Source: Candidatus Nomurabacteria bacterium (GTDB lineage: Bacteria > Patescibacteriota > Patescibacteriia > UBA1558 > GWA2-36-10). Taken from it: DNA of 64,000 nt. Location: positions 322,732-386,731 of the forward strand of contig JACKFO010000002.1 in NCBI GenBank assembly GCA_020632415.1, in the 5' to 3' direction. The notes under the pieces were generated by a model that was not told the DNA's origin, did no database searches, and worked only from the letters and a program-made list of their open reading frames with translations. The translations under genes were made by a program, and so were the position numbers. This document shows positions 7,277-56,610 of the stretch, piece by piece (the stretch's first letter is position 1; each line of letters opens with the position of its first letter).

Positions 7277-8563
7277 CTATTCTTTAATTATCTCTTTTGC
7301 ACGATCCAATTGTGGGTCTAAGTCATTGTTATAATCTTCAGTAGTGTATTCTATTTTTTCATCAGGCTCAACTCCCACATCGTCAATTGTTCTGCCTTTA
7401 GGAGTAATCCAATTAGCCACCGTTACTTTCAAGGCTGAACCATCTTTAAGCTCAAACAACTGTTGGACAGAACCCTTACCAAAAGTAGTTTGACCAATTA
7501 CCGTACCAAAACCATAGTCCTGTAAAGCGCCAGCCAAAATCTCCGCTGCTGAAGCCGATCCTTCATTAACTAAAATGACCATCTTATATTGACTCAAATC
7601 TAGTTCTTTTGGCGCTTTATAATCTTTACTATCTTTTTGATTTGAAAAAATTTCTCTGACCACCACTTGTCCATCTTGCAACCAAGAGCCGGCAATGTCC
7701 ACTGCTACATCCAAAAATCCACCAGGATTGTTTCTTAGATCCAAAATAATACCATCCGGATTATCTCGTAAAACTTGCTGAGCAATTTTAATAAAACGAC
7801 TGTCCGTGTCACTATTAAAGTGACTAATCTTAATTACTGCAAGATTATCTTCTAATTTATAAGTGACACTAGGAATAGCGATTTTATCACGCTTGATTTT
7901 AATTTCTTTTGGCGTATTTTCATCTTTAGACAAAACAGTCAAAACAAGCTCTGTTCCTTTGTCACCACGAATCAAATTAACCGCTCCGTCAACTGACAAA
8001 CTACTAGCATCTTGTTCATCAATGCCTAAAATCTTGTCCCCTGCTCTCAAGCCAGCAATTTCTGCTGGAGAATCTGGCAAGGGAGCGATAATCACCAAAG
8101 CGCCATTTTTACGACCAATCTCTGCACCGATTCCAAAAAAGCTACCATTTAATTCTTGAGTAAATTCATCAGTAACTTCTGGATTCAAAAAAATAGTATA
8201 AGGGTCATTAACCGCTGCCACCATACCAGAAATTGCTCCGTAGAATAAATCTGATTCTGAAATTTGATTTCGCTTAAAATAATATTGGTGTAAAGTTTCC
8301 CAAGCATCTTTGAATAAAGCTGGATCAATATTTTCTGTTCCAGAAAAAATGCCTAAAATTTCATCAGCAGTAGTTGCAAAAACGTTTTCCTGAGCGGTTT
8401 TATTATTTAAATTACTAGTAAAAACCCCTGCTCCAAAAGCAACTAAAATTAAAAAAAACAAAGCGTAAATTTTAATTACCCTTTTAAACAAATTTTTCTT
8501 CTTTTTCAAAACATCTTCAGTTTGCTCATTGGTAAACTGACTCTTATTTTCAAATTGATACAT
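7277..8563 (-). CDS. ctpA: carboxyl-terminal processing protease (S41 peptidase)
   Basis: N-terminal TM, PDZ domain (GLRAGDKILGID), S41 catalytic region (NEGSASAAEILAGALQD). Confidence 0.85.
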   Translation of the reverse strand: MYQFENKSQFTNEQTEDVLKKKKNLFKRVIKIYALFFLILVAFGAGVFTSNLNNKTAQENVFATTADEILGIFSGTENIDPALFKDAWETLHQYYFKRNQISESDLFYGAISGMVAAVNDPYTIFLNPEVTDEFTQELNGSFFGIGAEIGRKNGALVIIAPLPDSPAEIAGLRAGDKILGIDEQDASSLSVDGAVNLIRGDKGTELVLTVLSKDENTPKEIKIKRDKIAIPSVTYKLEDNLAVIKISHFNSDTDSRFIKIAQQVLRDNPDGIILDLRNNPGGFLDVAVDIAGSWLQDGQVVVREIFSNQKDSKDYKAPKELDLSQYKMVILVNEGSASAAEILAGALQDYGFGTVIGQTTFGKGSVQQLFELKDGSALKVTVANWITPKGRTIDDVGVEPDEKIEYTTEDYNNDLDPQLDRAKEIIKE

Positions 8564-8569
8564 AATTTA

Positions 8570-9865
8570 TTAATCGTTTACTCTTTTTATCTTAGCGCCC
8601 AAAGCTGCTAATCTTTGATCTAAAAATTGATAACCACGATCGACTTGATAGATGTTATCGATCACACTTTCACCACGAGCAGATAAGGCAGCCAAAATTA
8701 AAGTCGCGCCTGCTCTCAAATCAAAACTACTCATTTCTTTACCAAATAAAGGAGAAGGGCCAATAACAATCACTCGGTGTGGATCAGAAACAATAATGTT
8801 AGCTCCCATTTTCTTTAGTTCTGCCACATATTTCATCCGACCATCATACATCCAGTCATGAATTAAGGTTGTGCCATGAGCCTGAGTCATCAAAGCAGTC
8901 ATCGGCTGAATTAAATCAGCAGCAAAACCAGGATAAGGCATGTCATGAATTTTTTCTACTGCTTTCAAATCCACTCTACCGTCAACTTTAATATTTGCCA
9001 ACTGATAATGTTTATTTGGCGATAAATCTAAATAATTAATTTCTATTTTTAAACCAACTTCTTTAAATTTTTCTAACTCCAAAGCCAAAAAATAAGGAGC
9101 AGTATTTAAAATAGTGATTTCAGATCTAGTGCAACCGGCCAAAGAAATAAAAGTTCCCGTCTCAATTGGATCCGGCATAATATGATATTCGCCACCGCCC
9201 AAAGACTTTGCGCCTTTGATCGTTAATTCGTGTGTGCCAATGCCTTGGATCTCTAAACCTAGAGTTTCCAAAAACCAACAAAGATCCTGAACACTTGGAT
9301 CAGAAGCAGCGATTCTTATTTTGATTTCTCCTTGATTGATCGCTGAAGCTAAAATAATATTTTCTGTACCAGTGACAGAAAATTCATCCATCACAATCTC
9401 TGTGTTGGCGGCTCGTTTTTTTTCTAAAATATAATATTTGCCATCAAACTCTACATCTACACCCAAACGAGCAAAAGCTTTAAAGTGGGTATCCATTGAA
9501 CGAGCGCCGATCTGACAACCACCGGGCGCTTTGGTTTTAATTTTACCAAAACGACCAACCATTGCCCCCATCAATAAAATTGAGGAGCGCATCGTACTCA
9601 TCAGGTCCATATCCAACTTTTCTGGATCAAGCTCAGCGGCATCAATAGTTAGACTATGTTTATCCAACCAAACAACTTTAACTCCCAAAGAAGTTAAAAT
9701 TTGAATCATTTTTTTCACATCCTCAATTAAAGGAACGTTGTGTAAAGTGATCTTTTCTTTTGACAAAACAGAAGCTGCTAAAATTGGTGTCGTAGCGTTT
9801 TTAAAACCAGCAACCTCGATTGTTCCTTTGAGCGCATTGCCTCCTTGAATAATAAATTTAGACAT
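8570..9865 (-). CDS. murA: UDP-N-acetylglucosamine 1-carboxyvinyltransferase
   Basis: MSKFIIQGGNALKGTIEVAGFKNATTPIL. Active-site Cys loop KAPGGCQIGARSMD. Full-length EPT fold. Confidence 0.93.
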   Translation of the reverse strand: MSKFIIQGGNALKGTIEVAGFKNATTPILAASVLSKEKITLHNVPLIEDVKKMIQILTSLGVKVVWLDKHSLTIDAAELDPEKLDMDLMSTMRSSILLMGAMVGRFGKIKTKAPGGCQIGARSMDTHFKAFARLGVDVEFDGKYYILEKKRAANTEIVMDEFSVTGTENIILASAINQGEIKIRIAASDPSVQDLCWFLETLGLEIQGIGTHELTIKGAKSLGGGEYHIMPDPIETGTFISLAGCTRSEITILNTAPYFLALELEKFKEVGLKIEINYLDLSPNKHYQLANIKVDGRVDLKAVEKIHDMPYPGFAADLIQPMTALMTQAHGTTLIHDWMYDGRMKYVAELKKMGANIIVSDPHRVIVIGPSPLFGKEMSSFDLRAGATLILAALSARGESVIDNIYQVDRGYQFLDQRLAALGAKIKRVND

Positions 9866-19132: not shown

Positions 19133-21688
19133 TTAATCAACTAATTGATAAGGCAACAAATCCGCTTCAAAGCGAGAAATGCTACTGCCAGTTGGATAAA
19201 CGGACAAATCCGTTTTAATCACCACGTCTTTCATTCTAAAATAATTAGCGCTAAAGGCTGCTAAATTAGAAAAAGGTCTTTTTCTTCCGTTTTCAATATA
19301 ATAAATCGTGTCATTATCAGGCTCTTTAGCTAAAATTCCGCTTGGCAATAGATTATAAATATCATCTCCTTTTTCATAAGTAGTAGCAAAATAACCAGGA
19401 ATTACATCTTGTACCAAACGAAACCAATTATCGCCATACAAATGTCTAGCCATTTCCTCTGAAGGGATATATCTTAAAAATCCATTTGGTTCAACTGCAT
19501 AAATTTTATTTGAATCCACAGTAGTAACCAATTTTATTCCCGGACGATAAGTTATCACTCCTCCATCTGGATATAAATCTAATTCTGCAACATCAACTTT
19601 TACTACACGATCAAAATTATCATACCAAGTATAGTAGGTTTTTGGATCTGGAAAAGCATATTTCTTACCATCTTGGCCAATATAATAAACAGTTGCGTCT
19701 TTGACTCCAGCTTGAGCAAGTAATAAACCCGAGTCAGCAAACTCTTGAATACCTAAAACTTGTCCCACAGAAACTTGAATTGAATCATTGACAATAGAAC
19801 TAGTTCCTCTTCTATTTTTGAATTGAGCATAAACCGTTCTTGTGCCATTACCAGCAAGCAAAGCCCAAGGAGTGGTAGTACTATAAGCTCGCCAAGCAAC
19901 ATTATCAAAATTAGAAAAATTACTAATTCTCATTTCCAAAGGAGCATAGGCAGAAGTCATGTTATTAGCAAATAGATTCAAAGTTACCACGCTACTATTA
20001 CTAGTTGCTGCGTTATTATTAATCAAAACTTGTGGATTGCGAGGATTGGAGCTAATTCCTCCTCCGCCGCCTCCTCCGCCGCCTCCTCCGCCGCCACCGG
20101 AAATAGCATTAACAGTAATTGTGCTGGTAGCAAAATCAGAATAAGCTAAACCATCAAAAGCACGATAAGTAAACTGATCGGCACCAACAAATCCACTTTC
20201 TGGTGAATAAGTAAATGAACCATCGTCATTTAAGGTCAATTGTCCATGACTAACATTTGTTCCTAGAACACTAGATAGATCGTGTGGACCTTGATCACTA
20301 TCACTGTCATTGGCTAAAACACCATCTCCAGCTGAAATATTTAACTGAACATTTGCATTTGTCTGATAGCTATCATTATTGGCGACTGGATTTTCGTTTA
20401 GATTTTCTCCAACTGCCAAAATTACTTTGGCAAGATTAGAATAAGCTAAACCATCAAAAGCACGGTAAGTAAAAGCATCTTTTCCTTCAAAATCTGTATC
20501 TGGTACGTATTTAAAATTACCATTTACACCCATGATCAAAACTCCATGTTCAACCCAATTTTCAACTTTAACAGTCATAGGCTCTGGACGATTGTCTGGA
20601 TCTTTATCATTGTCCAAAATACTTTCCGGAGAAAGAATGAATGTTTCATTTTTATCTAATTGATAAGCATCACCTTTAGCAATTGGTGAGCGATTAGAAC
20701 CGGTATCTTTAACAACAACCTTAACTGTTGCAATGTCAGAATAATCAAGACCATCAAAGGCTTGATACCTAAAATAAGCATTGCCAACATAACCCTTTTC
20801 TGGCTTATAAATAAAAGACCCATTATTATTTAATTCTAAATGTCCATGAGTCAAATCTTCATTACCCATATCCCACAAACGAGCTGTTAAATGCTGCGGA
20901 CCATCTTGATCTTGGTCATTTGCCAAAACTCCATTTAAACGATCAATAGTTAAAAGATTACCGGAAACAACTGAATATAAATCTCCTTTAGCAATTGGCT
21001 TTTGATTATCAACCGGATCATTTCCGCGGCCAATTTCTATTTTGATGATAATTTCTTCAGTGTCCGTACCATTTACTGCCTTTAATCTTCCAGAGAACTT
21101 ATAGGTTCCTTCTGGCCAATCACCACGTATCTTAAAACTTTTTGTATCATCTAAAGCATCCTTAAAAACCAAACCATTTTGACCATTGGCATAAAGATAA
21201 AATATCGGTGCTCGATCATAAATAATATGATGCATCGGCTCAGTCATGTCACCAAGATAACGTAAAAAAGTACTTGGATAATCAACTATTGCAAAAGGAT
21301 AGTCGCCACGCAATACTTCGACGTTAGTGGAGCTCTCAATAGAATTAATATAATAAATTTCTATTTCTTCTTTGGTATTTAATTGATAACCGTGATCTAA
21401 ATCGCCACGCAATCTTTGCCATTCACGACCATCAAGTGAAGAAGCCAGGGTTAAACTCTCCAAGGTCAATCTTTCATTTTGATAACCAAAGCCACCATAA
21501 GGAGAGGTGTTATTTGGTTTTTTTGATGCTGTGCTCGCTGAATCTTGCTTAGTATTTTGATTGATCAAAACTTTAGCGCTGAGATTAGACACGTCTTCAC
21601 TGATCATCGCCAAAGCTGGCAATGAATAACTAAAGCTACTGCTCAACAAAATACTGGAAATAGTAAAAATACTAATAAATTTTTTCAT
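19133..21688 (-). CDS. large secreted surface protein with three tandem cadherin-like/Ig-like repeats and a poly-Gly linker
   Basis: Signal peptide. Three repeats of about 95 aa (PIAKGD...GSFxYxPExGxxGxDxFxYRAFDGLxYS...). A run of 14 Gly. C-terminal domain. Confidence 0.6.
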   Translation of the reverse strand: MKKFISIFTISSILLSSSFSYSLPALAMISEDVSNLSAKVLINQNTKQDSASTASKKPNNTSPYGGFGYQNERLTLESLTLASSLDGREWQRLRGDLDHGYQLNTKEEIEIYYINSIESSTNVEVLRGDYPFAIVDYPSTFLRYLGDMTEPMHHIIYDRAPIFYLYANGQNGLVFKDALDDTKSFKIRGDWPEGTYKFSGRLKAVNGTDTEEIIIKIEIGRGNDPVDNQKPIAKGDLYSVVSGNLLTIDRLNGVLANDQDQDGPQHLTARLWDMGNEDLTHGHLELNNNGSFIYKPEKGYVGNAYFRYQAFDGLDYSDIATVKVVVKDTGSNRSPIAKGDAYQLDKNETFILSPESILDNDKDPDNRPEPMTVKVENWVEHGVLIMGVNGNFKYVPDTDFEGKDAFTYRAFDGLAYSNLAKVILAVGENLNENPVANNDSYQTNANVQLNISAGDGVLANDSDSDQGPHDLSSVLGTNVSHGQLTLNDDGSFTYSPESGFVGADQFTYRAFDGLAYSDFATSTITVNAISGGGGGGGGGGGGGGISSNPRNPQVLINNNAATSNSSVVTLNLFANNMTSAYAPLEMRISNFSNFDNVAWRAYSTTTPWALLAGNGTRTVYAQFKNRRGTSSIVNDSIQVSVGQVLGIQEFADSGLLLAQAGVKDATVYYIGQDGKKYAFPDPKTYYTWYDNFDRVVKVDVAELDLYPDGGVITYRPGIKLVTTVDSNKIYAVEPNGFLRYIPSEEMARHLYGDNWFRLVQDVIPGYFATTYEKGDDIYNLLPSGILAKEPDNDTIYYIENGRKRPFSNLAAFSANYFRMKDVVIKTDLSVYPTGSSISRFEADLLPYQLVD
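20058..20104 (-). repeat. in-frame 9-bp microsatellite (GGAGGCGGC)n encoding the poly-Gly tract
   Basis: cctcctccgccgcctcctccgccgcctcctccgccgccaccgga on the plus strand. The 9-nt unit means slippage would change linker length without a frameshift. Confidence 0.7.
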
Positions 21689-21721
21689 ATACTTAAAAAG
21701 TTACAAACTTTATTTACAAAT

Positions 21722-23395
21722 TTAAAAAATAATTAAAAACCCTAACAACAATAGTAATAAAACCGCTGAACCAATTACTTTGTAATTTTGCTTTTTAATG
21801 TGTACAAAGATATTTAAAATCAAAGCAATACTTAATAACAAACCAAAAATCTTATAATAAATCAAAGAAATATTAAACAAAGTTTTTGTACCATCAAGTT
21901 GATTATGTCGCAAAAAGAAATATTGATTCAACAAAGAAGTCTTAACTGGCTTGATTTGATCAAAAGAAAGATCAACTGTATTTTGATTACCAGCAAAATC
22001 AATAATTTGCAAACTTGGTAAAATGATTGGATTAAAAAATTTTTCTGCTTGTTCTTTTGAAAAAGTTGTATAAGCTAGCCAATGTCCAGGATCATTTTGT
22101 TCTAAATCAACAAATACCCCACCGATATTAACCATTGCTGTTTCTACGTCTTCACTCAAATAAGCATCAATTTTAACAATTGCTTCATTTTTTCCTTCTG
22201 GTTGATCAATGATAATTTTTGTCTTTTCCAAATCAACGCTAGGCGCTGTCAAATCTACCTGATAATAATATTTTTCGGAACTAATTTGCTCTTGATCTTT
22301 GAAGGCAAGTAAATAAATCTCGTGCTCGCCTTCAGTTAAAGTAAGTGGCAAAATAAAATTATTCAAATTCTCCGCTTTGTTTTTATCGAGTAAAACTTGA
22401 CCATTGTCATAAACAATTATTTTATTTGAAGCTACGGATTCAATTTCTAAATCAATTTGGCTAAAGTTTGCCAAAAATCCAGTTTCCGGAGAGATGATTT
22501 TTGCTGGCAACAAAGGCTGGTTCAATTCTTGCTCAGCCAAAACCTGTGAATCAGAGATGATTTCTAAATCAGGAATATTTTCTTCTACTACAAAATCAAA
22601 GTTTTCTTCTGGCAAATCTAAAACTTCCGGTTGATTTTCTGCTTCGATAATCTGTGAATTGTTTAAATCATTTGTCTTGATTTCTGGAACAATACTTTCT
22701 GGAACTTTTACTTCAGTCACCTCCTTGATTTCTTCTGTTGTTTCTGTAATCGGCTGAACAACAACTCTTGGTTTGGCAAAAAACTGCGCTGCCAAAGTTG
22801 TGTCTCCACCATTATAAAGTCCATTAGCCATACTGACGCCAATTTCTGAATATAAAGGATCGATCAAGTTAGCATAGTGAGTAGGACTATTTTGCCAAGC
22901 TGCTACTACATCTTCGGCACTAGCAAAACCCATGGCCAGATTTTCACCAGCAACATGATAAGTGTAACCCAGTGCTCTTAGCCAAGAAGAGACTCGCTTG
23001 CCATCAGGACCAACATGCGCAAAATACTGCTCCAAAAGCATATCTTCCACTTTATTGTAAGCTGCTTGATCCAAAATCGCACTTTCGGTCAAGGGATTTA
23101 AATTTAAATTTACTCGAACTTGATTGGTCAAAGTGATGATTTTTTTACTTTCACCAGTCAAAACATCTGGAGTCAACCAAGCGGTAATTGGCAATAAAAC
23201 TACAAAAATAGCCACAATTACCTTCATGGCCACTGCTGAACTGGCATAAAAAAATAAACGACGATACTGCAAAGAATGAGGATGATAATCATTCTCAATG
23301 CTTGGAATAAAAAAATCCTTGACTTTAGTCCGCCAAGACTTATTTCCCTCTTTAAATTGTGGACCTAAATCTTCAAACATAAGTTTATGTTTCAT
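21722..23395 (-). CDS. membrane-anchored CAP (SCP/PR-1/YkwD-like) domain protein
   Basis: N-terminal TM. CAP core HVGPDGKRV...HVAGENLAMGF...AAWQNSPTHYANLIDPLYSEIGVSM. C-terminal TM anchor. Confidence 0.65.
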   Translation of the reverse strand: MKHKLMFEDLGPQFKEGNKSWRTKVKDFFIPSIENDYHPHSLQYRRLFFYASSAVAMKVIVAIFVVLLPITAWLTPDVLTGESKKIITLTNQVRVNLNLNPLTESAILDQAAYNKVEDMLLEQYFAHVGPDGKRVSSWLRALGYTYHVAGENLAMGFASAEDVVAAWQNSPTHYANLIDPLYSEIGVSMANGLYNGGDTTLAAQFFAKPRVVVQPITETTEEIKEVTEVKVPESIVPEIKTNDLNNSQIIEAENQPEVLDLPEENFDFVVEENIPDLEIISDSQVLAEQELNQPLLPAKIISPETGFLANFSQIDLEIESVASNKIIVYDNGQVLLDKNKAENLNNFILPLTLTEGEHEIYLLAFKDQEQISSEKYYYQVDLTAPSVDLEKTKIIIDQPEGKNEAIVKIDAYLSEDVETAMVNIGGVFVDLEQNDPGHWLAYTTFSKEQAEKFFNPIILPSLQIIDFAGNQNTVDLSFDQIKPVKTSLLNQYFFLRHNQLDGTKTLFNISLIYYKIFGLLLSIALILNIFVHIKKQNYKVIGSAVLLLLLLGFLIIF

Positions 23396-23464: not shown

Positions 23465-23508
23465 AATAAAAAAGAAAGCGGTGATCACGTTAGACGCGAC
23501 CACCGCTT
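23465..23508 (-). terminator. intrinsic terminator of the GC-rich beta-barrel-like gene
   Basis: Stem AAGCGGTG/CACCGCTT (17-nt loop) followed on the minus strand by UUCUUUUUUAUUU. Confidence 0.55.
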
Positions 23509-23529
23509 GAGAACATCGAAACCAGAAGA

Positions 23530-24513
23530 TCAGGGACGCCAGTAGTAGCGCACAGCCGCGACTGCCTGCTCGAGACGACTGTCGTAGCCGACCTGGAAGC
23601 TCAAAGAGCCGATCAGCTCCCCAGAATTCTTCCAGCCAAGAAAAGCCTGCCAGGCTTCAGCTTGCTCACCGAAGTCAAATCCTGAGGTCAAGAAGAACTT
23701 CTGCTTTGCTCCCAGACGGAGAAAATCCCAGTTTCCCTTCAAGACGTAGAGATTGTCCGGAGCGATCCATCCGTCCGGATGGAAGCGATAGCTCCAGCCA
23801 CCGGCCAAAGCCAAAGACTGCCAGGGTCGAGTGTAGAGCGAGACGTTATGACCAATCTCTTCTTCCCAGCTCAAGTGAAGATCGAAAATGCTCCAGTAGC
23901 CATTGAGGTGGTAGTTGCCGACCCAAACATCACTATCCAGCATCGGAAAAGCGCTGAACAAACTATCCAGACCTCGTGCTGGCCATGTACGACGAGCGCC
24001 ATAGCCCAAAGCAGCAGAAGCGCCAAAAGGTCGACCTCCCAACTGATCATACCAAGCGACTTGCAAGGCTGCTCCTGAGATACTCCCGGTAAAAGGCAGC
24101 TCAGCGTCATTTGGTCGCAAGAGAGTTGCTTCGTAGGCCTGAGGAAAGCTTTCCAAAGCCAGGTTTCGATACTGTCCAGCGCGCAGACTGAAATTCCCAT
24201 TGGAATTTCGCCAATCGTGCTGAACAAAGGCCTCGCTCAAGAAAGCCTCAGCCTGATCACCGTAAGCAATCTGACCTTCAGCCTTGAACGAAAAAACCTT
24301 GTTTTGACCACTTGAAACCCAAGCTTGTCCTCCTAGAAGGCTGTATGACCAGCGGGCTTGCAAGCTATCTTCGAAGCTGGTATTCAAACCAGCGCCTCCA
24401 TAGAAGTCCAGCTGGAAACGTTCCACCTGATCATCACTGGAAGCAGCAGCAAAAGCTGTGGACTGGGTCCAGAGGATCAACAGACCCAACAGCCAAAAAC
24501 TCAAAGTTTTCAT
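23530..24513 (-). CDS. secreted beta-barrel-like protein (ORFan, GC-rich cassette A)
   Basis: GC about 58%. GGAGG 8 nt upstream. Signal peptide (AFA|AA). Alternating aromatic/Gly-rich amphipathic strands along the protein. No recognisable family. Confidence 0.5.
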   Translation of the reverse strand: MKTLSFWLLGLLILWTQSTAFAAASSDDQVERFQLDFYGGAGLNTSFEDSLQARWSYSLLGGQAWVSSGQNKVFSFKAEGQIAYGDQAEAFLSEAFVQHDWRNSNGNFSLRAGQYRNLALESFPQAYEATLLRPNDAELPFTGSISGAALQVAWYDQLGGRPFGASAALGYGARRTWPARGLDSLFSAFPMLDSDVWVGNYHLNGYWSIFDLHLSWEEEIGHNVSLYTRPWQSLALAGGWSYRFHPDGWIAPDNLYVLKGNWDFLRLGAKQKFFLTSGFDFGEQAEAWQAFLGWKNSGELIGSLSFQVGYDSRLEQAVAAVRYYWRP

Positions 24514-24584
24514 CGCCTTTTCCTCCGCGTTGCTTGATTTTGTTGTTATTTTCTGATTTCGTTTGTGTCAAAGATCGGGAGAAC

Positions 24585-24606
24585 TTCATGTTTAAAAAAA
24601 CATGAA
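24585..24606. promoter_or_regulatory. palindrome TTCATGTTT-aaaa-AAACATGAA in the divergent cassette-A intergenic region
   Basis: Perfect 9-bp arms. Lies in the 5' leader of the minus-strand gene between two divergent promoters. Confidence 0.4.
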
Positions 24607-24679
24607 ATATCCAACTGTAAACCATACACCAAAATCTATTATTTGTCAAGTCTAGCTTATTTTAGCCCAAAAATAACTC

Positions 24680-24708
24680 TTGACAAATATTTTAAAATAG
24701 TATATAAT
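24680..24708 (+). promoter_or_regulatory. consensus sigma70 promoter TTGACA-17-TATAAT
   Basis: -35 at 24680-24685, -10 at 24703-24708. RBS GGAGG at 24744-24748 then ATG at 24754. Confidence 0.6.
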
Positions 24709-24753
24709 ACTTTGTTACGTACACTGACAACCAAAACCACACGGAGGAACACC

Positions 24754-25500
24754 ATGAACCGCATTCACAGCTTCTGCCTGCTGATGCTCCTGTGCATCAG
24801 CGCCGCCTTCGCCGACGCCTACGAAGAACCCATCAAGAACACCAACCCCGACACCACGGCCACCACGGCGTCCTGGGAAGCGAACACGCTTCCGATGGAA
24901 CCCTGGCTGATCAAGTGGGACGCCAACGGCCAGCCGGTCAAGACGCATCGTCTGAGCTTCGAAATTTCCGGCAGCGACACCCTGTACTACAAGGGTGACT
25001 GCCTGATCGAAGATCAGCGCGTCCGCTGGTATCCGAAGTCCCTGCAGGACAACCGGATGCACTCGGCCTACTGGACCGCTCGTCGCAGCATGTACGCGGC
25101 ACTGCTCGTCGCCGGCTACCAAGCGCGCGAAGCCGACTCGCTCTGCCGCACGCTACAACCCGTGATCGATGGCCAGAAGGACAGTCGTCCCCTGCTCAAC
25201 CAGATCATGGCCGCCGCCCCGAACATCCACAAGCTGAACATGCTGGAACATGAGCTCCTGGCAATGCAACAGCAGATGGTCACCGTCGACATGCTCAACG
25301 AGTTCGCCGGAGACATCGACGCCGCCCTGTCCGAACACGTCAACTTCGCCGAAACGGTGGATGACTTCCTCAATCAGACACGAGGAAAGAAGTGGGGACG
25401 CGCCAAACGTGCTCACTCCCTCTTCCTGACATCGGCGCCGCCGAGCGAGGAACGATGCCTTCCGTCAACGGAAGAGATGCCCATGCCGAGCAAGTTCTGA
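24754..25500 (+). CDS. secreted protein (ORFan, GC-rich cassette A)
   Basis: GC about 60% with E. coli-like codons (CTG, GGC, CGC, ATC). Signal peptide MNRIHSFCLLMLLCISAAFA. Start trimmed from the track ORF 24565 to the SD-preceded ATG. Confidence 0.5.
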   Translation: MNRIHSFCLLMLLCISAAFADAYEEPIKNTNPDTTATTASWEANTLPMEPWLIKWDANGQPVKTHRLSFEISGSDTLYYKGDCLIEDQRVRWYPKSLQDNRMHSAYWTARRSMYAALLVAGYQAREADSLCRTLQPVIDGQKDSRPLLNQIMAAAPNIHKLNMLEHELLAMQQQMVTVDMLNEFAGDIDAALSEHVNFAETVDDFLNQTRGKKWGRAKRAHSLFLTSAPPSEERCLPSTEEMPMPSKF

Positions 25501-25528
25501 CCTCCTCCGTGAAGCGCAATTTCAGCGC

Positions 25529-25576
25529 AAGCCCGCCCCAAACTACAGCAGTAGCAAAGGCGGGCTTTTTCTTTGA
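25529..25576 (+). terminator. intrinsic terminator of the cassette-A plus-strand gene
   Basis: AAGCCCGCC...GGCGGGCTT followed by TTTTTCTTT. Confidence 0.5.
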
Positions 25577-25609
25577 TTAAAAAACACCTCGCAGCTTAGC
25601 TGCGAGGTG
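25577..25609 (-). terminator. intrinsic terminator of the 1699-aa gene
   Basis: CACCTCGCAGC-tta-GCTGCGAGGTG followed by UUUUUU on the minus strand. Confidence 0.65.
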
Positions 25610-25622
25610 AAATTTTATTTAT

Positions 25623-28600
25623 TTATTTTTTATACAAATTGTCTAAATCTACTTGATTACGAACTTCAATTGTTGGATCACCCAAAGGATCTAATCTAAA
25701 TAATTTACCGGCTTCTTTAACAAAGGTATTTCCTTCAGTATCAGTAAAAGTAGCGCCATCATTCATTTGTGATAATTGATCAAAACCACGGTGTACTTCA
25801 CCAGCTATTTCTGTGCTTGTCTGAGCTGCCTCAGCAACATTCTCGCTAACTGGAACTTGTTCAGGTATCGCCTCAGCTGACACTGGCTCTACCGGCTCTT
25901 CAATTGGCGTCTCAAAACTTTCTGGTTCCATAGCCCCAGCTGTCTCCCTAGCTTTCCTAGCTTGATCCAGACTTTCACTTAAACCAGACGCTTTTGGTTC
26001 TGGAATATTATCTGCTACTGGCGGCAAATTTTCAGACGCAGCTTTTGCCGCTGTTTTTACTGGCTCTGATAAAACTGAATTATCCAACCAAGATTCTAAA
26101 ACTTTTTCTTTCAAAGTCCAAGTATTGCCACTCAAGTCGTCTAACATATATTCTTCTTGACCAAATAAATGTTTTTTTACTAAATGCACAAAAGCATAAA
26201 ATTGACGACCATTTTCATCTTTGACTAAACGCGCCTCCCAAGCTTTACCAGGCAAAGAATCGCTAGTAGCTACTTTATCAAAAGCGGAAGTGTATCTTTC
26301 TACTGTTTCCAAATCATTTAGATCAGAAATCTTTACATTTGGCGCTTGTTCTACATATTTCAAAAATATCGCTGCTTTATTACTATCTGGTGTAAAAGAA
26401 TTTGGATAATAATCCTCCAAAAATTGCCTTTGTACCTCTGGAGAACTTTCAAAAACATGATTAACTAAAGCGTCAATTTCTTGTGGATTATTTTCTACTG
26501 CTCTTAAGAGCTCTTCTGAATAAGGAGTCTTACCAGCTAAAAATCCATCCAAATTAGCGGTAGCTACTTCTGCTGAGCCTGTTGTTTCTGGAACAAAATT
26601 ATGTCCACTATGATCTACCATTTTACTCAAATCATCTACTGTAACATCATGATTGTCTGCAAGACGATAAATTGTTTGACCATTGATTTCTACCTGCTCA
26701 ACTGGCTGATGATCAAAAGACCAATTATGCACTTCTCCATCATGAGACAACCAATCCGTACCATGTGCTCTAACTTCAGCAGCGATTTGGTCAACGCTTT
26801 CCGTACTGATTCTCACTCCATGTTTTGCTGCCTCGGCAATTGCTTCATTATTGGCAACAATATTTTGCATTTGCTCAGCAGTCAAAGCGCCTGATTTTTG
26901 CGCAGCTTCACTAATGTTTTCTGGATTAAATAAATTACCAAAATTTAACTTCGTGCCAAGCTTTAGCTGATCAACATCACCGTCAATACCAAAAGCTTTT
27001 GGATCAGCGACAATTTTATCTTTAAAATAATCAATAAAATAAGTACGCTGAGCTTCATTTAGATTGTTCCAATTTGGCACTCTAGCTCTTAACTGATCTT
27101 CTGTTAGATTCCAAACATTATCTCCTTTACTAACTACGGCTTCAACACTAATTCCTCCTTGATCTGGGATATTCTCTGCCACACCATGTGGTACTGGAGC
27201 GTCTGATTCTAAAGTTGGTCTTAAATAAGCTGTTTCTGGAGCGCCAGGATCAGCAACTTCCTGAGCGTGCTCTGCTGCGCCTTGCACCTGATCTGCGCCA
27301 TCAGCGTGACTTAATTTATCCAAAACTCTTGAACCAGCTATTGCTCCAACTGTCAAACCTAAAACCGCTGAGACGCCATATCGTCTCATAGCCTTCATAC
27401 GTGATTTATCTTGTGCGCTAGATAAAGTCTCTACCGTCTTCTGTTCTGTTTTTAAAGTCTCGCTGACAATATCAATTTTAACAGAATTAATTCTTTCATT
27501 ACCATTAACTATAGGCTCTCCTATAATTTCATCGAGAGCGATTTTATCTTGGAATTCCGACTTTAATCTTCGAAAATACTCTTCTTGAATCAAGTTCACA
27601 AAAGCTGCTTGCTCATCACCAAAACGACCAGCCTCAGCTAAACCAACTCTTTTATCTAAACTCAAAATTCTTAATCGCGCTAATTCTTTAGCTAATTCCT
27701 CTGTTGGATATTGCTCTTGATTTCCTAACACCTCTCTCCATTCAACGATATCTTCGTCTGTAATTTTTCCTGCTTCTGATTTTTTGCTTTTGAATCCAAG
27801 ATTTTTCATCTTGTCAATCAAACCTTTTTGTCCGCCCCATTCACTTCTTTTATCAATTGTTGCTTCAGCAAACATAAAAGTGCCCGTAGAAGACATCACG
27901 CCACGTGCTGTCAAAATACCAGCAACAACTCCAGTTGTACCACCGCTAAACAACAAACTAGCGCCAAACAAACCAACACCTAAACCTAATCTAATTTTTC
28001 CGGTTTTACGCCAAAATTCTTTAAATTTTCCAATAAAATTTTTATCCAAACCACTGGCTTCAGCGTCAATCGCCACTTCTTCGGCTTGTAACAAAGAAAT
28101 GTATTCGCTGGCCAATATGTTTTTAAGCTGTTCTATCGTAATCTTACCCTCAGTAAAATCTTGTAATAATTCTCCTTTTTTATTTTCCAAACTATCATGA
28201 ACATGCTTGTCTTTGGCCTCTTGGTAAGCTTGAGCTATTTTTTCAAATTTGCTTTTACCTCCACGAACAACCTGGCCTCTTTTATATAAAGCTTTTACAA
28301 AGGCTGAACGCAACTCATCTAAATTACCAGGAACAACATCTTCATAAGACTCATTTTCAATCTCCTCTGAAATTCCTCCGTCAATCACCTCCTCAACGCC
28401 TTCTTCAGTGCGATGGCTTTCTTCTGAATCTTCTTCAGTGGCGCCTTCTGCTGCTTTTTCAATTTCTTGACTAAAACGAGCAATAATATCATCCAACTTA
28501 TCTTCTAATTCCTCTCTTGGCAAACTTCTGTCTAAACTACTGATTTCATCAAGAAACTTAGCTTGAATTTCTGGATGTTTTTGACCGTCTTCATAATGAT

Positions 28601-30722
28601 TAATATATTCTTCATAGTCTTCAAATAATTTAACCATTTCATCATTTACCGGCTGTTTTTCTTGATCATTATCTCGTAATAATTCTAATTTCTGATCCAA
28701 AGCCTGATTAATCTCTCCAATTCTTTGATTTAGTTCTGCGATAGTTAAATTTTGATCAAGGGCTTTTATTTCGGCAATTTTAGCCGCAACTAAACCCGCT
28801 GCTTGTTCAGCTTTATTTCCATAATCATCAGCTCTCAATTCAGCAAATGTCTGATCTAATTCTTTAGCTGCTTTAGTAATTAATTTGGTTTGTTCATTAT
28901 TAGATTCAACTTGAGTTTCTACTTGTTCGGCTCCCTCTGCCACTTGACCATCTGCAGAATCCGATGCCGCTGTAGTGGCAGCTTCTCTATTTCTGTGATC
29001 TAAAGCTTCCTGAATAGTATAAACTTTTTCATTTGTTGTATTTGTATCCATTCCACGATCATTAAAAACAAAATCTGGATATGCAGTGGCAATCTTTTGT
29101 TCTAATTCGCTTAACTCTTCTCCCTCGATAATTTTGATCATTACTCTTCTAACCGCATTAATTAGTTCAACTTGAATCACATAATCTGACATGCTTTCGA
29201 TCGGATCACCAAACTTCCAACCACCCGGATTAGTTAATTGATCATTGACAATTTTAGCAAATAATCTTTCATCATAAGCAAATCTCATGCGATCATAAAC
29301 CCCTGCGGTTGGTACCGAATCTGGAGCTTCTTCTTCCGCTGCTTCAGGAGCATCATCGATATTTGAATCTACTTCTTTAGGTTCTAATTTAGCAACTAAA
29401 TCTGGAGACAAAAGCTTCCAAATAACAAATGGCTCTTGGCCTTCAATTTTGACTTCAAATTTTACTTTTTTCCAACCCTTATATGCGTCTTTGATTTCTG
29501 CTGAAGTGATCAAAGCTGCTGGGCGTACTTCATTGCGCAAACCCAACTGTAACTCTCCAGAAAGCTCGGTTAATTCATTACCCATTAATTGATTTACAGC
29601 GTCTACTATACCATCAAGATGCTCTTTGGCATCAAACTCAACCTGACCATCACCCATGATCATCAAATCGACTACTTTTGCTGCAAAGTCTTTTGGCATT
29701 AAAAAACTTTCCATCCCAGGTAGACCCTTAACAAAAGCTGAATCTACTTTAACTAATTCGTCAGTACCAAATTCTTCCATCGCACCTTCTTTTTCTGGAT
29801 CAAAATTTTCTATGCCTTGAAATTTAAACTCTGTTGGTATATTTATAATCACCTCCATCATTGCTCCGCTGCGCTCACCCAAACCTCTTTCAAATTCTTC
29901 AAGAGAAAAATCTAGCCTCCTTAAATCCTCTGGAACTTCGACAACAGGACTAACAGGCTTTTGACCAACGATTTTTGATGCTTCTTGATCAACAGGATTA
30001 GTACCAGTAACAGCACTATCTGGACGCAAGGCTGCTAAAAACTTCGGAAATTTATCAACCACATCTTCTATTTCTGCTGCTTTCAATCTTTTTAAACCAG
30101 ACAAATTACTTGCTAGCTTATCTTGTGCTTTTTTAAGAATTTCCTCATCAACACCCGAAGCTCTAAATTTTCTAAAATCACCACGCAAAATAGGCTCTGC
30201 TGCTTTTTCAATCGCAGCAAGAAATTCACGGCCGATATTTTGCATTTTTTCTTCAACGGCAGCTGAATCATCAAAAAAATGAGGATCATTAATTTGCTTC
30301 AATAAATCCTCTCTCTTGCTTTCAGCTAATAAATTGCTGTCTTTAATAGCCCTTTCTAATCTATCAAGCTCCTCTGCTAAGCGCTCCTGATCTGCATCAA
30401 AATCAGCTTCTTTTCCAAATACAGCATGTGCTAAATTATCAACTAATTCTTTAGTGGATTTGCCCGCTTGCTCTGCTTCAAGCCGCAAGCTAGGATCTTT
30501 AACTTCTGCTTTAAACTCATCAACATTTTGATCAACTTTTTGCTCAGTTTCTTGCGCAACTTGCAAAACTTGATCTGGTCGAGCTTCTGTCTCTGCTCCT
30601 GCTGTTAAATTTTCTTGACGATCTTGAGCTAAAAGCGCATCAATTCTTTCTGGATCAATTGCGCCAGGAATATTCTCTCCATTCCTTTTTTCTCTTAAAT
30701 GCCTGGATTGTTTATCACCCAT
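25623..30722 (-). CDS. giant (1699 aa) acidic coiled-coil protein with a central TM hairpin
   Basis: Single uninterrupted ORF. Long Glu/Lys-rich heptad-like stretches. Two hydrophobic helices near residue 900-950 (GLGVGLFGASLLFSGGTTGVVAGILTARGV). Polar C-terminal domain. Confidence 0.7.
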   Translation of the reverse strand: MGDKQSRHLREKRNGENIPGAIDPERIDALLAQDRQENLTAGAETEARPDQVLQVAQETEQKVDQNVDEFKAEVKDPSLRLEAEQAGKSTKELVDNLAHAVFGKEADFDADQERLAEELDRLERAIKDSNLLAESKREDLLKQINDPHFFDDSAAVEEKMQNIGREFLAAIEKAAEPILRGDFRKFRASGVDEEILKKAQDKLASNLSGLKRLKAAEIEDVVDKFPKFLAALRPDSAVTGTNPVDQEASKIVGQKPVSPVVEVPEDLRRLDFSLEEFERGLGERSGAMMEVIINIPTEFKFQGIENFDPEKEGAMEEFGTDELVKVDSAFVKGLPGMESFLMPKDFAAKVVDLMIMGDGQVEFDAKEHLDGIVDAVNQLMGNELTELSGELQLGLRNEVRPAALITSAEIKDAYKGWKKVKFEVKIEGQEPFVIWKLLSPDLVAKLEPKEVDSNIDDAPEAAEEEAPDSVPTAGVYDRMRFAYDERLFAKIVNDQLTNPGGWKFGDPIESMSDYVIQVELINAVRRVMIKIIEGEELSELEQKIATAYPDFVFNDRGMDTNTTNEKVYTIQEALDHRNREAATTAASDSADGQVAEGAEQVETQVESNNEQTKLITKAAKELDQTFAELRADDYGNKAEQAAGLVAAKIAEIKALDQNLTIAELNQRIGEINQALDQKLELLRDNDQEKQPVNDEMVKLFEDYEEYINHYEDGQKHPEIQAKFLDEISSLDRSLPREELEDKLDDIIARFSQEIEKAAEGATEEDSEESHRTEEGVEEVIDGGISEEIENESYEDVVPGNLDELRSAFVKALYKRGQVVRGGKSKFEKIAQAYQEAKDKHVHDSLENKKGELLQDFTEGKITIEQLKNILASEYISLLQAEEVAIDAEASGLDKNFIGKFKEFWRKTGKIRLGLGVGLFGASLLFSGGTTGVVAGILTARGVMSSTGTFMFAEATIDKRSEWGGQKGLIDKMKNLGFKSKKSEAGKITDEDIVEWREVLGNQEQYPTEELAKELARLRILSLDKRVGLAEAGRFGDEQAAFVNLIQEEYFRRLKSEFQDKIALDEIIGEPIVNGNERINSVKIDIVSETLKTEQKTVETLSSAQDKSRMKAMRRYGVSAVLGLTVGAIAGSRVLDKLSHADGADQVQGAAEHAQEVADPGAPETAYLRPTLESDAPVPHGVAENIPDQGGISVEAVVSKGDNVWNLTEDQLRARVPNWNNLNEAQRTYFIDYFKDKIVADPKAFGIDGDVDQLKLGTKLNFGNLFNPENISEAAQKSGALTAEQMQNIVANNEAIAEAAKHGVRISTESVDQIAAEVRAHGTDWLSHDGEVHNWSFDHQPVEQVEINGQTIYRLADNHDVTVDDLSKMVDHSGHNFVPETTGSAEVATANLDGFLAGKTPYSEELLRAVENNPQEIDALVNHVFESSPEVQRQFLEDYYPNSFTPDSNKAAIFLKYVEQAPNVKISDLNDLETVERYTSAFDKVATSDSLPGKAWEARLVKDENGRQFYAFVHLVKKHLFGQEEYMLDDLSGNTWTLKEKVLESWLDNSVLSEPVKTAAKAASENLPPVADNIPEPKASGLSESLDQARKARETAGAMEPESFETPIEEPVEPVSAEAIPEQVPVSENVAEAAQTSTEIAGEVHRGFDQLSQMNDGATFTDTEGNTFVKEAGKLFRLDPLGDPTIEVRNQVDLDNLYKK

Positions 30723-31338: not shown

Positions 31339-32688
31339 CTAGTCGACGTTCACTGTGCCAACAGCGCCACCGCCTCTGACCTTGATATTGGAGTTTTTCT
31401 TCTCAGCCAAATCTCCAATCTCTTGCAGACAACGCAGACGCTGTTCATAGGTTGCTGTTTCGGGGTTCAGGCCTAAAGCCGCCAAAGCAGCATCAATCTC
31501 TGCTGTGAAAGCCTCGCCATCTGCCTTGCGAAGACGAATCTTACGCTTGGATTCAGACTCAGCGGCGGCCTCAGCATTTTGAGCTTTTTCGATCTCTGGA
31601 TCTCTAGTGGGATCACCAAAGTCCAAAGTATCGAAAGCATGCCCAACGGCCTCCAGCAACTTGCCATTAAGTTCGGTTTGCTTCGAATGATCAAAGGTTA
31701 CGTCCAAACCCTTGACCTGATCGAAACTCATAGAGCTCATGACACTTATCACATCATTGACAATTACTGTGCCAGCTACCTCAACCGAAGTCGACTGATC
31801 CTCAGACGACATCCGCAGAAAACGAGAAGGATGCTGACAAGTAATCACGCCAACTCGAAGATCAATATTGGCAGTAGAGTTGTCTCCTAGCGGCACAAAA
31901 CCAGTCTTGTATTTGCGTTCTATGGCCTCATAACGCAACAGAGTGACGCTATAGAGAAACATCCAAACTGGAATTCCTACTCGGCCCAGATACCAAGGCA
32001 AGATTGGCGCATTTATGTCACTATCACGATGATTGCCGTGATTAGATCCATAAAAATACCAATCGCCAAATTTCTTCCTGATCGGACCTCTCGGAATCAG
32101 AAATGGCCTATTCATGAACTTCGGAACCCAGCGCTCGGTCACTTCCGGCACCATGATCGAACCAATACTCCAGAAAATTGGTAAAGCCAAGAGAAAGACT
32201 GGCTGCCAGATACCAACCATAGCGCAGGTGAAAAAGCCGACAGCAGAAATTACTCCGAACCCGTAAGGTCTGGCCGGAGGCGGAGCTGGTTTTTGACCCT
32301 TGACTACATCACGCTTATCAATGAAAAAGCTGCCGGTCCAAGCTCGGCGGAAAGCGATCACGCCGAAGCCTAGCAAAACAAGGCTGGCGATCAGCTTCCA
32401 CCAAGGGAATTCTCCGTTGAAATTAAGCCAGGAGAAAAGCTGCCAGTTCCACGGCTTCAGCAACAAAGCTGCGTACCAAAGAACAAGTCCAAGCTGCAAA
32501 GCGATCCGAGTCCTCTTATCCTTAGATGTTTTAGGCTTCTTATCCTTGTCCAGATCAACGAGCCAGCTATTCAAGCTCCAGTAGATACTGAGCGGCAAGG
32601 CAAAGAAGATCAGGAAAATAGCGATGCCGTGAACAAATTGTGGGTCTTTCCATCCCACACGGCTGATGATTTTCTCCAAGGCTTCCAT
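31339..32688 (-). CDS. polytopic membrane protein with cytoplasmic C-terminal domain (ORFan, GC-rich cassette F)
   Basis: GC about 50%. RBS GGAGAA. About six TM helices then an approximately 200-aa soluble domain ending in a coiled-coil-like KIRLRKADGEAFTAEIDAALAALG. Confidence 0.55.
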   Translation of the reverse strand: MEALEKIISRVGWKDPQFVHGIAIFLIFFALPLSIYWSLNSWLVDLDKDKKPKTSKDKRTRIALQLGLVLWYAALLLKPWNWQLFSWLNFNGEFPWWKLIASLVLLGFGVIAFRRAWTGSFFIDKRDVVKGQKPAPPPARPYGFGVISAVGFFTCAMVGIWQPVFLLALPIFWSIGSIMVPEVTERWVPKFMNRPFLIPRGPIRKKFGDWYFYGSNHGNHRDSDINAPILPWYLGRVGIPVWMFLYSVTLLRYEAIERKYKTGFVPLGDNSTANIDLRVGVITCQHPSRFLRMSSEDQSTSVEVAGTVIVNDVISVMSSMSFDQVKGLDVTFDHSKQTELNGKLLEAVGHAFDTLDFGDPTRDPEIEKAQNAEAAAESESKRKIRLRKADGEAFTAEIDAALAALGLNPETATYEQRLRCLQEIGDLAEKKNSNIKVRGGGAVGTVNVD

Positions 32689-49893: not shown

Positions 49894-49962
49894 ATGTTCA
49901 AAAAGTGGTTTCCTAATCAAAGCAACCAGAGAGAGTCGACGTCTTCAACGCGAGTTGAGTAA
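49894..49962 (+). CDS. 22-aa upstream peptide (MFKKWFPNQSNQRESTSSTRVE)
   Basis: AGGAG 8 nt upstream. Ends 17 nt before the AAGGAGGG RBS of the next gene. Composition intermediate between host and cassette. Confidence 0.3.
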   Translation: MFKKWFPNQSNQRESTSSTRVE

Positions 49963-56561: not shown

Positions 56562-56610
56562 TTGACAAGAAAAGAGAAATACCTTATAATCAAGTTCGTA
56601 ATTTTATAAT

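Follow-up and report, generated by a model that had tools for sequence, protein, structure and literature searches.

A GC-rich divergent gene pair predicted to encode an exported porin-like barrel and an exported partner in an AT-rich Nomurabacteria chromosome

Our analysis of a 64,000-nucleotide stretch of the chromosome of a Candidatus Nomurabacteria bacterium (referred to here as the window) supports the prediction that two divergent GC-rich genes, embedded in the AT-rich chromosome of this member of the Candidate Phyla Radiation, encode an exported porin-like beta-barrel protein and an exported partner protein. We assign a probability of roughly 0.55 to the reading that this cassette represents a two-gene envelope module, restricted to a Nomurabacteria clade, and that its diverged alleles are exchanged and its GC-richness is maintained. 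The 64-kb window also carries ordinary housekeeping genes.

The features of the locus are listed in the table below. The layout given in the original prediction, namely a divergent GC-rich pair that is separated by an AT-rich promoter core and closed by strong terminators, was recovered at all the coordinates it had named, and the partner terminator does adjoin the terminator of a convergent gene for a 1699-aa protein. The latter hairpin abuts the cassette and belongs to the neighbouring gene; it is not a member of the cassette. The GC content is 0.50–0.64 over positions 23500–24500 and 24700–25600 compared with 0.30–0.36 in the flanks, and it is 0.31 in the intergenic region of 240 bp (24514–24753). 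GC3 is 0.54 in the barrel ORF and 0.81 in the partner ORF, while the ordinary ORFs of the window show values of 0.15–0.36. This shift spans G- and C-ending codons as well as the amino-acid composition of the proteins.

Features of the cassette and its immediate border (positions refer to the window)
Feature	Position	Strand	Details
Barrel gene, CDS H6761_01720, 327 aa	23530..24513	-	predicted 16-stranded porin-like beta-barrel, predicted to be exported
Partner gene, CDS H6761_01725, 248 aa	24754..25500	+	predicted to be exported; signal peptide ending AFA/DA
Barrel Shine-Dalgarno sequence GGAGGA	24521..24526	-	7 nt 5' of ATG; putative, read from the sequence
Partner Shine-Dalgarno sequence GGAGGA	24743..24748	+	putative
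Barrel intrinsic terminator	23476..23508	-	15-bp stem, then TCTTTTTT; -24.4 kcal/mol, z = -6.4
Partner intrinsic terminator	25529..25575 (hairpin 25529-25567 plus T-run)	+	-26.9 kcal/mol, z = -3.3
Bidirectional terminator hairpin of the convergent 1699-aa gene	25585..25609	-	-21.7 kcal/mol, z = -8.5
Partner promoter TTGACA-17-TATAAT	24680..24708	+	12/12 matches
Barrel promoter TTGACA-17-TATGGT	24621..24649	-	sequence match
Back-to-back -35 boxes in a perfect 11-nt inverted repeat	24640..24689 (arms 24640-24650 and 24679-24689)	.	TATTTGTCAAG / CTTGACAAATA
Stem-loop in the barrel 5'-UTR (palindrome extended to 11 bp)	24583..24608	-	RNA fold -13.4 kcal/mol, z = -5.1

In the orthologous leaders the barrel Shine-Dalgarno sequence reads GGAGGA or GGAG, and equivalent GC-rich terminator hairpins, followed by CTTTCTTTTTT, are present at the related loci L002 to L006. 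In the partner terminator, a GC stem of 9 bp encloses an internal hairpin and precedes TTTTTCTTT. Because an identical gene order was found in independent assemblies, the cassette is not an assembly artefact. No paralogs of the cassette genes were detected inside the window. At least four further GC-rich orphan genes of the window have their promoter and terminator style in common with the cassette, so that the phenomenon looks genome-wide and not like a one-off. The sequence TTYSACAA was considered as a leader motif common to all GC-rich genes and was discarded, with 16 matches in the window versus 23.6 expected; it is conserved among the orthologous barrel leaders only.

The N-terminus of the barrel protein (MK, a hydrophobic core and TAFA/AA) has the appearance of a Sec signal peptide with a site for signal peptidase I and is conserved in the homologs. 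The AF2 model of the protein contains 16 long strands (pLDDT 67.5, pTM 0.62), and the pLDDT is below 50 for 68 residues, the L3-like loop and several further loops among them. In a shallower run based on 5 sequences the pLDDT was 52.5 and three of the five models scored only about 39; the strand positions were nearly equal in both runs. The strands, each 8–16 residues long, form a strict up-down meander in which short turns alternate with longer loops. Hydrophobic or aromatic residues alternate with polar ones along the strands, which are rich in glycine and aromatic residues, and the protein contains no cysteine. Strands 5 and 6 are joined by a 30-residue loop with a short helix, modelled at a pLDDT below 50; this loop ranks with the better-conserved parts of the family. 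The last strand shows an alternating A-V-Y-W pattern followed by RP (…YYWRP) or by longer tails, and there is no terminal aromatic residue. Foldseek searches with this model retrieved OmpC, OmpF, OmpU and the Rhodobacter porin (E = 2e-4, TM 0.43–0.51). In contrast to the structural comparison, porin-family sequence profiles revealed no detectable relation to the barrel, a profile of the barrel family matched nothing among PDB sequences at E <= 10, and there were no matches in Pfam, NCBIfam (E <= 0.1), PADLOC or PHROGs. Of the features that had been claimed for the minus-strand protein, the signal peptide can be read from the sequence, and the beta-barrel pattern is in agreement with the outcome of structure prediction, a 16-stranded porin-like barrel modelled with moderate confidence.

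The plus-strand gene had been described as an ORFan encoding a secreted protein. Secretion is supported by its predicted signal peptide; the designation as ORFan had to be abandoned, as positional homologs exist in five other assemblies. These homologs (L002/L003, L008, L014 and L015) share 27–50% identity and occupy the same divergent position. About 110 aa at the N-terminus of the partner form a conserved domain. Its C-terminal half gave a weak alignment to 6qo1, a 'putative surface protein' (E = 4e-4), which was the sole PDB match and was treated as compositional and not as indicating a homolog. Pfam, NCBIfam, PADLOC and PHROGs returned nothing for the partner, and protein-database searches found no relatives outside these loci. 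A look-up of the exact 248-aa sequence likewise gave no record, because Logan calls a longer partner ORF of 311 aa.

The family is narrowly distributed. A search of 1.84 billion representative proteins gave only 6 matches, one of them a repeat-protein artefact, and scans of GTDB and JGI added one locus each. All relatives with a readable neighbourhood are found in the Nomurabacteria synteny, and the synteny of the cassette itself recurs at L002/3, L004, L008, L014 and L015. At partner-bearing loci the pair is always flanked by the gene of a giant protein on one side and by a CAP/YkwD gene on the other. L009, the most distant lineage, has a barrel homolog with a GC3 of only 0.39, which is accompanied neither by a partner gene nor by a leader hairpin.

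Comparison of close relatives indicates that alleles at this site are replaced by recombination, which is concluded from flanking proteins that are 94–95% identical while the barrels between them share only 35%. In detail, L004 and L008 have an amino acid identity of 94% for CAP and 95% for Dus (dS 0.2–0.5) versus 35% for the barrel, where dS is saturated, and their nucleotide identity rises from about 45% to above 90% some 40 nt into the CAP gene. For L014 and L015 the corresponding values are 90% for CAP, 68% for the barrel and 50% for the partner, with a mosaic identity profile. In general, the relationships among the barrels do not match those among the CAP proteins. Hypervariability confined to the loops of the barrel was considered as well and rejected, conservation being fairly even over strands and loops. 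Judging from the substitution patterns, the cassette genes are under purifying selection, with pN well under pS in the coding regions and a dN/dS of about 0.17 for the closest pair. As to the possibility that the pair is an ordinary conserved operon of this lineage, its position is indeed conserved, but the locus is far from ordinary, since its alleles have been replaced between close relatives and stay GC-rich.

Both promoters that had been proposed for the intergenic region, TTGACA-17-TATAAT on the plus and TTGACA-17-TATGGT on the minus strand, are present; they are AT-rich and of the sigma-70 consensus type, like other promoters of the window. Perfect TTGACA-N16-18-TATAAT sequences occur four times in the window versus 0.08 expected. 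Among six loci, the 32-mer of the partner promoter, spacer included, has an identity of 78–100% (mean 90%) and the 29-mer of the barrel promoter one of 72–100% (mean 85%). The promoter cores are hence 85–90% identical among the loci, yet synonymous positions of the coding regions have reached saturation. An additional observation, not contained in the original prediction, is the perfect 11-nt inverted repeat that surrounds both -35 boxes. The 28-nt AT-rich spacer between its arms, which might form a small hairpin, varies in sequence and length among the loci.

The palindrome with 9-bp arms (TTCATGTTT/AAACATGAA) at 24585–24606 was confirmed as well. It forms the core of a predicted stem-loop that would occupy nucleotides +7 to +32, approximately, of the barrel mRNA if the start site is predicted from the -10 box. 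The predicted starts are at about 24614 (-) for the barrel gene and about 24715 (+) for the partner gene. The orthologous leaders were folded one by one, the automatic leader alignment being not structure-aware, and hairpins were found in the same leader position at L002, L004, L008, L014 and L015. In all six loci, the window included, they begin 5–14 nt past the -10 box and have z values from -2.4 to -5.1. Their stems are of four unrelated sequences, i.e. that of the window, a type shared by L002, L014 and L015, that of L004 and that of L008; between L014 and L015 one G-C pair has changed to G-U. At gathering thresholds, Rfam detected nothing but tRNAs in the window; the barrel leader therefore does not belong to a known RNA family.

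Since the position of the hairpin is kept while the stem sequences differ, and since the change from G-C to G-U preserves pairing in RNA only, the leader is better described as an RNA structure than as a conserved DNA-binding site, and the palindrome fits a 5' stem-loop. The original prediction had regarded it as operator-like, i.e. as the binding site of a dimeric repressor of the barrel gene. Its perfect symmetry and its proximity to the promoter would suit such a site; however, the palindrome lies downstream of the -10 box within the transcribed leader, no half-site is conserved among the orthologous loci, whose four stem types are wholly different, and no DNA-binding domain is encoded by the cassette or its neighbours that could provide the anticipated palindrome-binding regulator, so that we consider an operator very improbable. 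A further alternative concerns the origin of the cassette, which might be recently acquired foreign DNA, derived for instance from a Gram-negative host of high GC content or from a mobile element, that has not yet drifted towards the composition of its new genome and has no special role. In base composition and codon usage the cassette deviates strongly from the genome, and the predicted fold is typical of diderm bacteria, as such an acquisition would lead one to expect. Nevertheless, the cassette occupies one syntenic site in all related assemblies, even where alleles are only 27–35% identical, every partner-bearing allele has a GC3 of 0.53–0.81 next to flanks of 0.2–0.3, and GC3 has remained high although synonymous sites are saturated. 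Recent acquisition is also at odds with the conserved AT-rich promoters, which are of the same type as the others of the window, and with the purifying selection on the genes. In addition, no direct repeats, mobility genes, integrase or adjacent tRNA were found at the cassette borders, no relatives were found in IMG/VR viral contigs, phage genomes or plasmids, and neither a donor genome nor any homolog outside the cassette context was found among 1.84 and 5.8 billion proteins. Recent transfer is thus quite unlikely. That all partner-bearing alleles stayed GC-rich in AT-rich genomes rather points to a persistent force at the nucleotide level, be it GC-biased gene conversion in a hot spot of recombination or selection that acts on mRNA or DNA. 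To our knowledge, however, gene conversion with an effect this large (GC3 from 0.25 to 0.8) would be far beyond what has been reported for bacteria.

The nature of the barrel protein also allows for different explanations. It might be a soluble, beta-rich protein that is secreted, for example as an adhesin or as part of a surface layer, with AF2 having closed the barrel on the basis of a shallow alignment. The modest pLDDT, the many residues below 50, the three poor models of the first run and the lack of a match to any sequence profile of outer-membrane protein families would be compatible with this, but the near-identical strand positions in both runs, the sixteen strands arranged in a strict up-down meander their dyad-amphipathic, glycine- and aromatic-rich character and the lack of cysteine in the protein argue for a membrane barrel, and we regard a soluble protein as rather improbable. 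For a transmembrane barrel there is no obvious home, since Parcubacteria have been reported to lack an outer membrane on the basis of electron microscopy and genomics; the statement that such a barrel would be unexpected in a monoderm host therefore applies to this Nomurabacteria/Parcubacteria source. The barrel could nevertheless be a porin of the clade's own outer-membrane-like or other lipid or proteinaceous outer layer, serving as a general diffusion channel and, as in other bacteria, being hypervariable because it is a phage receptor. This would be consistent with the porin-like architecture including an L3-like loop in the model, with the last strand, whose A-V-Y-W alternation resembles a C-terminal beta-signal, with allele replacement as is typical of exposed porins and with neighbouring genes that all encode envelope proteins. 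Against it stand the microscopy and genomics of Parcubacteria, the confinement of the family to a tiny clade and the fact that no outer-membrane biogenesis gene was found within the 64-kb window, which together make it improbable. A more far-reaching suggestion, which is doubtful but conceivable, is that an epibiont lacking an outer membrane exports the barrel, escorted by the partner, into the outer membrane of a diderm host, where it would act as a feeding channel. The cassette would then be a host-range determinant swapped by recombination, and its GC-richness would be actively maintained by biased gene conversion or mRNA selection instead of being a leftover of transfer.

According to our preferred reading, a lineage-restricted envelope module, the cassette would reside at a fixed chromosomal site between the genes of a giant membrane protein and a CAP/YkwD protein, and two conserved back-to-back promoters of the sigma-70 type would give rise to two transcription units. 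The first would encode a Sec-exported protein of about 300 aa that is predicted to fold into a 16-stranded porin-like barrel whose strands 5 and 6 are connected by a long conserved loop, and the second its co-inherited, exported partner. By analogy to the ompA leader, the 5' stem-loop of the barrel mRNA may stabilise the transcript and would not be a protein operator. The barrel may function as a channel at the cell surface or at the interface to a host, with the partner as its probable chaperone or adaptor, while deeply diverged alleles would be swapped between Nomurabacteria via homologous recombination in the flanking genes.

Patescibacteria are regarded as bacteria with a single membrane and without outer-membrane proteins. 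A clade-specific porin-fold protein that appears to be well expressed would, if true, imply either an unrecognised outer layer or a barrel used against the membrane of another cell, and both outcomes bear on how ultra-small symbionts feed. There is also an evolutionary puzzle in that synonymous sites are saturated in an AT-rich genome while GC3 is still 0.5–0.8 and alleles are shuffled between strains. The locus therefore lends itself naturally to weighing GC-biased gene conversion against selection on nucleotide content in bacteria.

Several known systems resemble the cassette in part. Phage 'morons' are autonomous transcription units that bring along a promoter and a terminator of their own and deviate in GC content, and each of the GC-rich cassette genes is likewise equipped with its own consensus promoter and strong terminator amid ordinary genes. 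Unlike morons, however, the cassette is chromosomal, has a lineage-conserved position and is without phage relatives. The leader of the barrel gene is reminiscent of the 5'-terminal stem-loop that reportedly stabilises the ompA mRNA of E. coli (a type of element said to have been described by Emory, Bouvet and Belasco in 1992), as it comprises a stable hairpin no more than about 10 nt away from the predicted 5' end, a long leader and a gene for a predicted exported barrel, with the structure being conserved and the sequence not.

With regard to the protein, the best structural matches are porins of diderm bacteria (OmpF/OmpC, OmpU, the Rhodobacter blastica porin, ScrY and chitoporin), with which it has in common a signal peptide, a length of about 300 aa in the mature form and the absence of cysteines. 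Shared as well is the predicted up-down barrel of 16 amphipathic strands with many glycine and aromatic residues, in which short turns lie on one side and longer loops on the other and a long conserved loop links strand 5 to strand 6. The protein differs from these porins in having no detectable sequence kinship to porin families, in a C-terminus that does not end in Phe or Trp, in the dedicated exported partner and replaceable GC-rich cassette that go with its gene and in coming from an organism whose group is described as having no outer membrane.

Neisseria porB and Campylobacter porA (MOMP) are hypervariable surface loci that are replaced by recombination. As in these loci, the alleles of the cassette at a fixed position conflict with the phylogeny of the flanks and show sharp breaks at the borders and an internal mosaic. 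In contrast to porB and porA, the cassette alleles differ by up to 65–70% at the protein level, their divergence extends over the whole barrel instead of being concentrated in the loops, and the composition of the entire cassette is unlike that of the rest of the genome.

The window has an overall GC content of about 35%, which rises to 0.50–0.64 in two blocks within positions 23500–25600 that are separated by a 240-bp spacer with a GC content of 0.31. The blocks hold the barrel gene and the divergent partner gene, each of which ends in a strong intrinsic terminator, and both -35 boxes in the spacer lie inside a perfect 11-nt inverted repeat. The ORFs, GC content, promoters, palindrome and terminators described in the original prediction were all confirmed in the sequence. 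GC at third codon positions (GC3) is 0.15–0.36 in the ordinary ORFs of the window, and the remainder of the window encodes ordinary chromosomal functions (CTP synthase, MurA, FtsX, DnaB, aminoacyl-tRNA synthetases, tRNAs) of an organism assigned to the Parcubacteria group of the Patescibacteria. In NCBI both cassette proteins belong to a Candidatus Nomurabacteria bacterium and are encoded on a contig of 842 kb.

Coordinates of the cassette, its flanks and other GC-rich genes and promoters in the window
Feature	Position	Strand	Remarks
Barrel CDS	23530-24513	-	327 aa; GC3 0.54; hypothetical protein H6761_01720 (NCBI)
Partner CDS	24754-25500	+	248 aa; GC3 0.81; hypothetical protein H6761_01725 (NCBI)
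Partner promoter-like site	24680-24708	+	TTGACA-17-TATAAT, perfect consensus; intergenic
Barrel promoter-like site	24649-24621	-	TTGACA-17-TATGGT; intergenic
Palindrome	24585-24606	- (as RNA)	11-bp stem; -13.4 kcal/mol; z = -5.1
Terminator hairpin of convergent 1699-aa gene	25585-25609
Giant 1699-aa protein gene	25623-30722	-	internal hydrophobic segments
Low-coordinate flank	19133-23395	-	CAP/YkwD-domain protein with N-terminal membrane segment; 851-aa cadherin/Big_9 repeat protein
Single-gene GC-rich island	31339-32688	-
Single-gene GC-rich island	49980-50429	+
Single-gene GC-rich island	54016-54558	+
Single-gene GC-rich island	60261-60737	+
Upstream ORF	49894-49962	+	22 codons; own GGAG
Perfect consensus promoter	32815-32787	-
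Perfect consensus promoter	60183-60211	+
Perfect consensus promoter	56562-56590	+

An identical arrangement is present in one independent Logan assembly and diverged versions in six further assemblies; the cassette is therefore not the product of a chimeric assembly. Wherever the flank is long enough the same order is found again, namely DUF5663, a 55-aa gene, a giant protein of 1700–1840 aa, the partner on the opposite strand, the barrel, CAP/YkwD, a cadherin-like protein, Dus, CorA and DivIC. The entire neighbourhood of the cassette codes for envelope proteins. Partner homologs occupy exactly the same position in related loci of other assemblies (L002/L003, 42–46% identity; L014, 44%; L015, 38%; L008, 27–30%), and the name ORFan, given to this gene originally, does not apply. 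Profile searches of representative proteins and clusters found relatives of neither cassette protein outside the clade: the barrel profile had six matches among 1.84 billion representative proteins, one of them a repeat-protein artefact, and the partner profile matched two clusters among 5.8 billion. Viral contigs, phages and plasmids contained none. In the most distant lineage, L009 (gene at 8001–9518 of that locus) and L010–L013, the barrel homolog has 505 aa, about 240 of which extend its N-terminus; the L009 gene has a GC3 of 0.39 and a TTGACT-17-TATAAT promoter, and both the divergent partner gene and the leader hairpin are absent from this lineage. Three Logan contigs of about 1.15 kb (L005, L006 and L007) carry the barrel gene alone and end near its borders, which may be explained by assembly breaks at the GC/AT transitions or by strain heterogeneity fragmenting the locus.

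Comparison of closely related loci indicates that the cassette alleles have been replaced, in addition to diverging. The loci L004 and L008 are closely related (CAP 94% and Dus 95% identical, dS 0.2–0.5), whereas their barrels are only 35% identical with saturated dS. Nucleotide identity is about 45% up to a point some 40 nt into the CAP gene, where it jumps to more than 90%. The L004 barrel is nearest to that of L002 (65%), while the CAP proteins of this pair are just 52% identical. Between L014 and L015 the identities are 90% for CAP, 68% for the barrel and 50% for the partner, in a mosaic profile reaching into the giant gene. The C-terminal 600 aa of the giant protein, 35–54% identical among relatives, are likewise mosaic between these two loci, and the variable region therefore reaches beyond the cassette. 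This protein has no Pfam domain; a weak FliN/SpoA-like stretch (aa 317–389, NCBIfam E = 3e-7) is far below the cut-off. Within an allele selection is purifying (dN/dS about 0.17, L014–L005). Since donors must carry the same flanks, they must be other Nomurabacteria. The original prediction named an ordinary conserved operon of this lineage as a refuting outcome. The pair is conserved, yet far from ordinary: the cassette is a recombination-swapped, compositionally aberrant, lineage-conserved envelope module.

Every allele with a partner gene, however diverged, has a GC3 of 0.53–0.81, against 0.2–0.3 in the flanks. Both G- and C-ending codons take part in the shift: TTA usage drops from 43% to 0%, while AAG rises from 17% to 86–91% and CTG from 2% to 26–58%. 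In both proteins Lys, Ile and Asn are reduced and Ala and Arg increased, and the barrel is additionally enriched in Gly and Trp. With synonymous sites saturated and GC3 still high, the composition points to an equilibrium kept by a nucleotide-level force, and not to recently transferred genes that have yet to drift all the way to the composition of the host. One candidate is GC-biased gene conversion, a hypothesis set out for bacteria in PMC4450053, acting at a recombination hot spot, although the effect size here would be extreme. The other candidate is selection on GC content, e.g. for mRNA stability.

The four further GC-rich islands (GC3 0.52–0.67 vs about 0.25) each have a strong terminator of their own and, except for the 149-aa gene, a consensus or near-consensus promoter upstream. 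They gave no Pfam, PADLOC or PHROG matches, and the majority of their products are membrane or signal-anchored proteins. The 449-aa island gene is hyper-divergent, with 30% amino acid identity to its L009 ortholog vs 51–76% for its neighbours. The upstream ORF (MFKKWFPNQSNQRESTSSTRVE) is located in the leader of the 149-aa membrane-protein gene. Perfect TTGACA-N17-TATAAT promoters occur four times in the window, with 0.08 expected by chance; three immediately precede GC-rich orphan genes and one precedes tRNA-Lys.

The partner protein has a signal peptide ending in AFA|DA, lacks a lipobox and has a variable, Pro-rich tail. Its N-terminal domain (about 110 aa, motifs PWLxKW..GQ and VxWxPK) is conserved. 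Its sole external similarity, a weak alignment of the C-terminal half to the PDB 'putative surface protein' 6qo1 (E = 4e-4), was regarded as compositional and rejected as homology. Partner divergence follows barrel divergence across loci, which is compatible with co-inheritance or physical partnership; a role as chaperone or adaptor would be a guess.

Both promoters stay conserved in comparisons in which synonymous sites of the cassette genes are saturated. Over six loci the 32-mer that includes the partner promoter has a mean identity of 90%, with 24 of 32 columns invariant including the spacer, and the 29-mer of the barrel promoter 85%. The palindrome, whose first base is some 7 nt past the predicted barrel start site, had been described as operator-like. 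The orthologous leaders of L002, L004, L008, L014 and L015 have a stable hairpin at its position (z -2.4 to -5.1, the window included), with stems that are unrelated between the window (UUCAUGUUU), L002, L014 and L015 (CAAACAA..UGCCU), L004 (CUAA.CCACC) and L008 (GACAAAUUGCCA); a G-C to G-U change distinguishes L014 from L015. This pattern argues for an RNA structure instead of a DNA operator. Downstream of the hairpin the leaders have in common GCTC..TCTTYGACAA..AATCAWC and then a strong GGAGG. Apparent sharing of this leader motif with the window's other GC-rich genes failed a count. The ompA mRNA carries a 5' stabiliser hairpin, which would be the closest analogue of the barrel leader hairpin.

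The barrel protein begins with a signal peptide of classical type (MK, hydrophobic core, TAFA|AA), has high contents of Gly, Trp, Tyr and Phe, and contains no Cys. AlphaFold2 gave a weak model with five sequences (pLDDT 52.5) and a better one with eight sequences of 24–51% identity (pLDDT 67.5, pTM 0.62), with nearly equal strand positions in both runs. The model is an up-down meander of 16 strands of 8–16 residues, most with one hydrophobic, aromatic or Gly face and an opposite polar face. The model and the strand pattern support the originally proposed barrel with moderate confidence. The protein would represent a new family with porin fold, and it occurs in Parcubacteria, which the literature describes as having no outer membrane. 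The barrel could reside in the outer membrane of a host, in an unrecognised outer layer of its own cell or not be embedded in a membrane at all. Sequence profiles link it to no OMP family, and it is for this reason not classed in any porin family, yet it would work like a porin, with a predicted layout as in general porins: turns of 2–6 residues alternate with longer loops. One of these loops joins strands 5 and 6; it has 30 residues with a short helix, is conserved better than much of the rest of the family and is modelled at low confidence.
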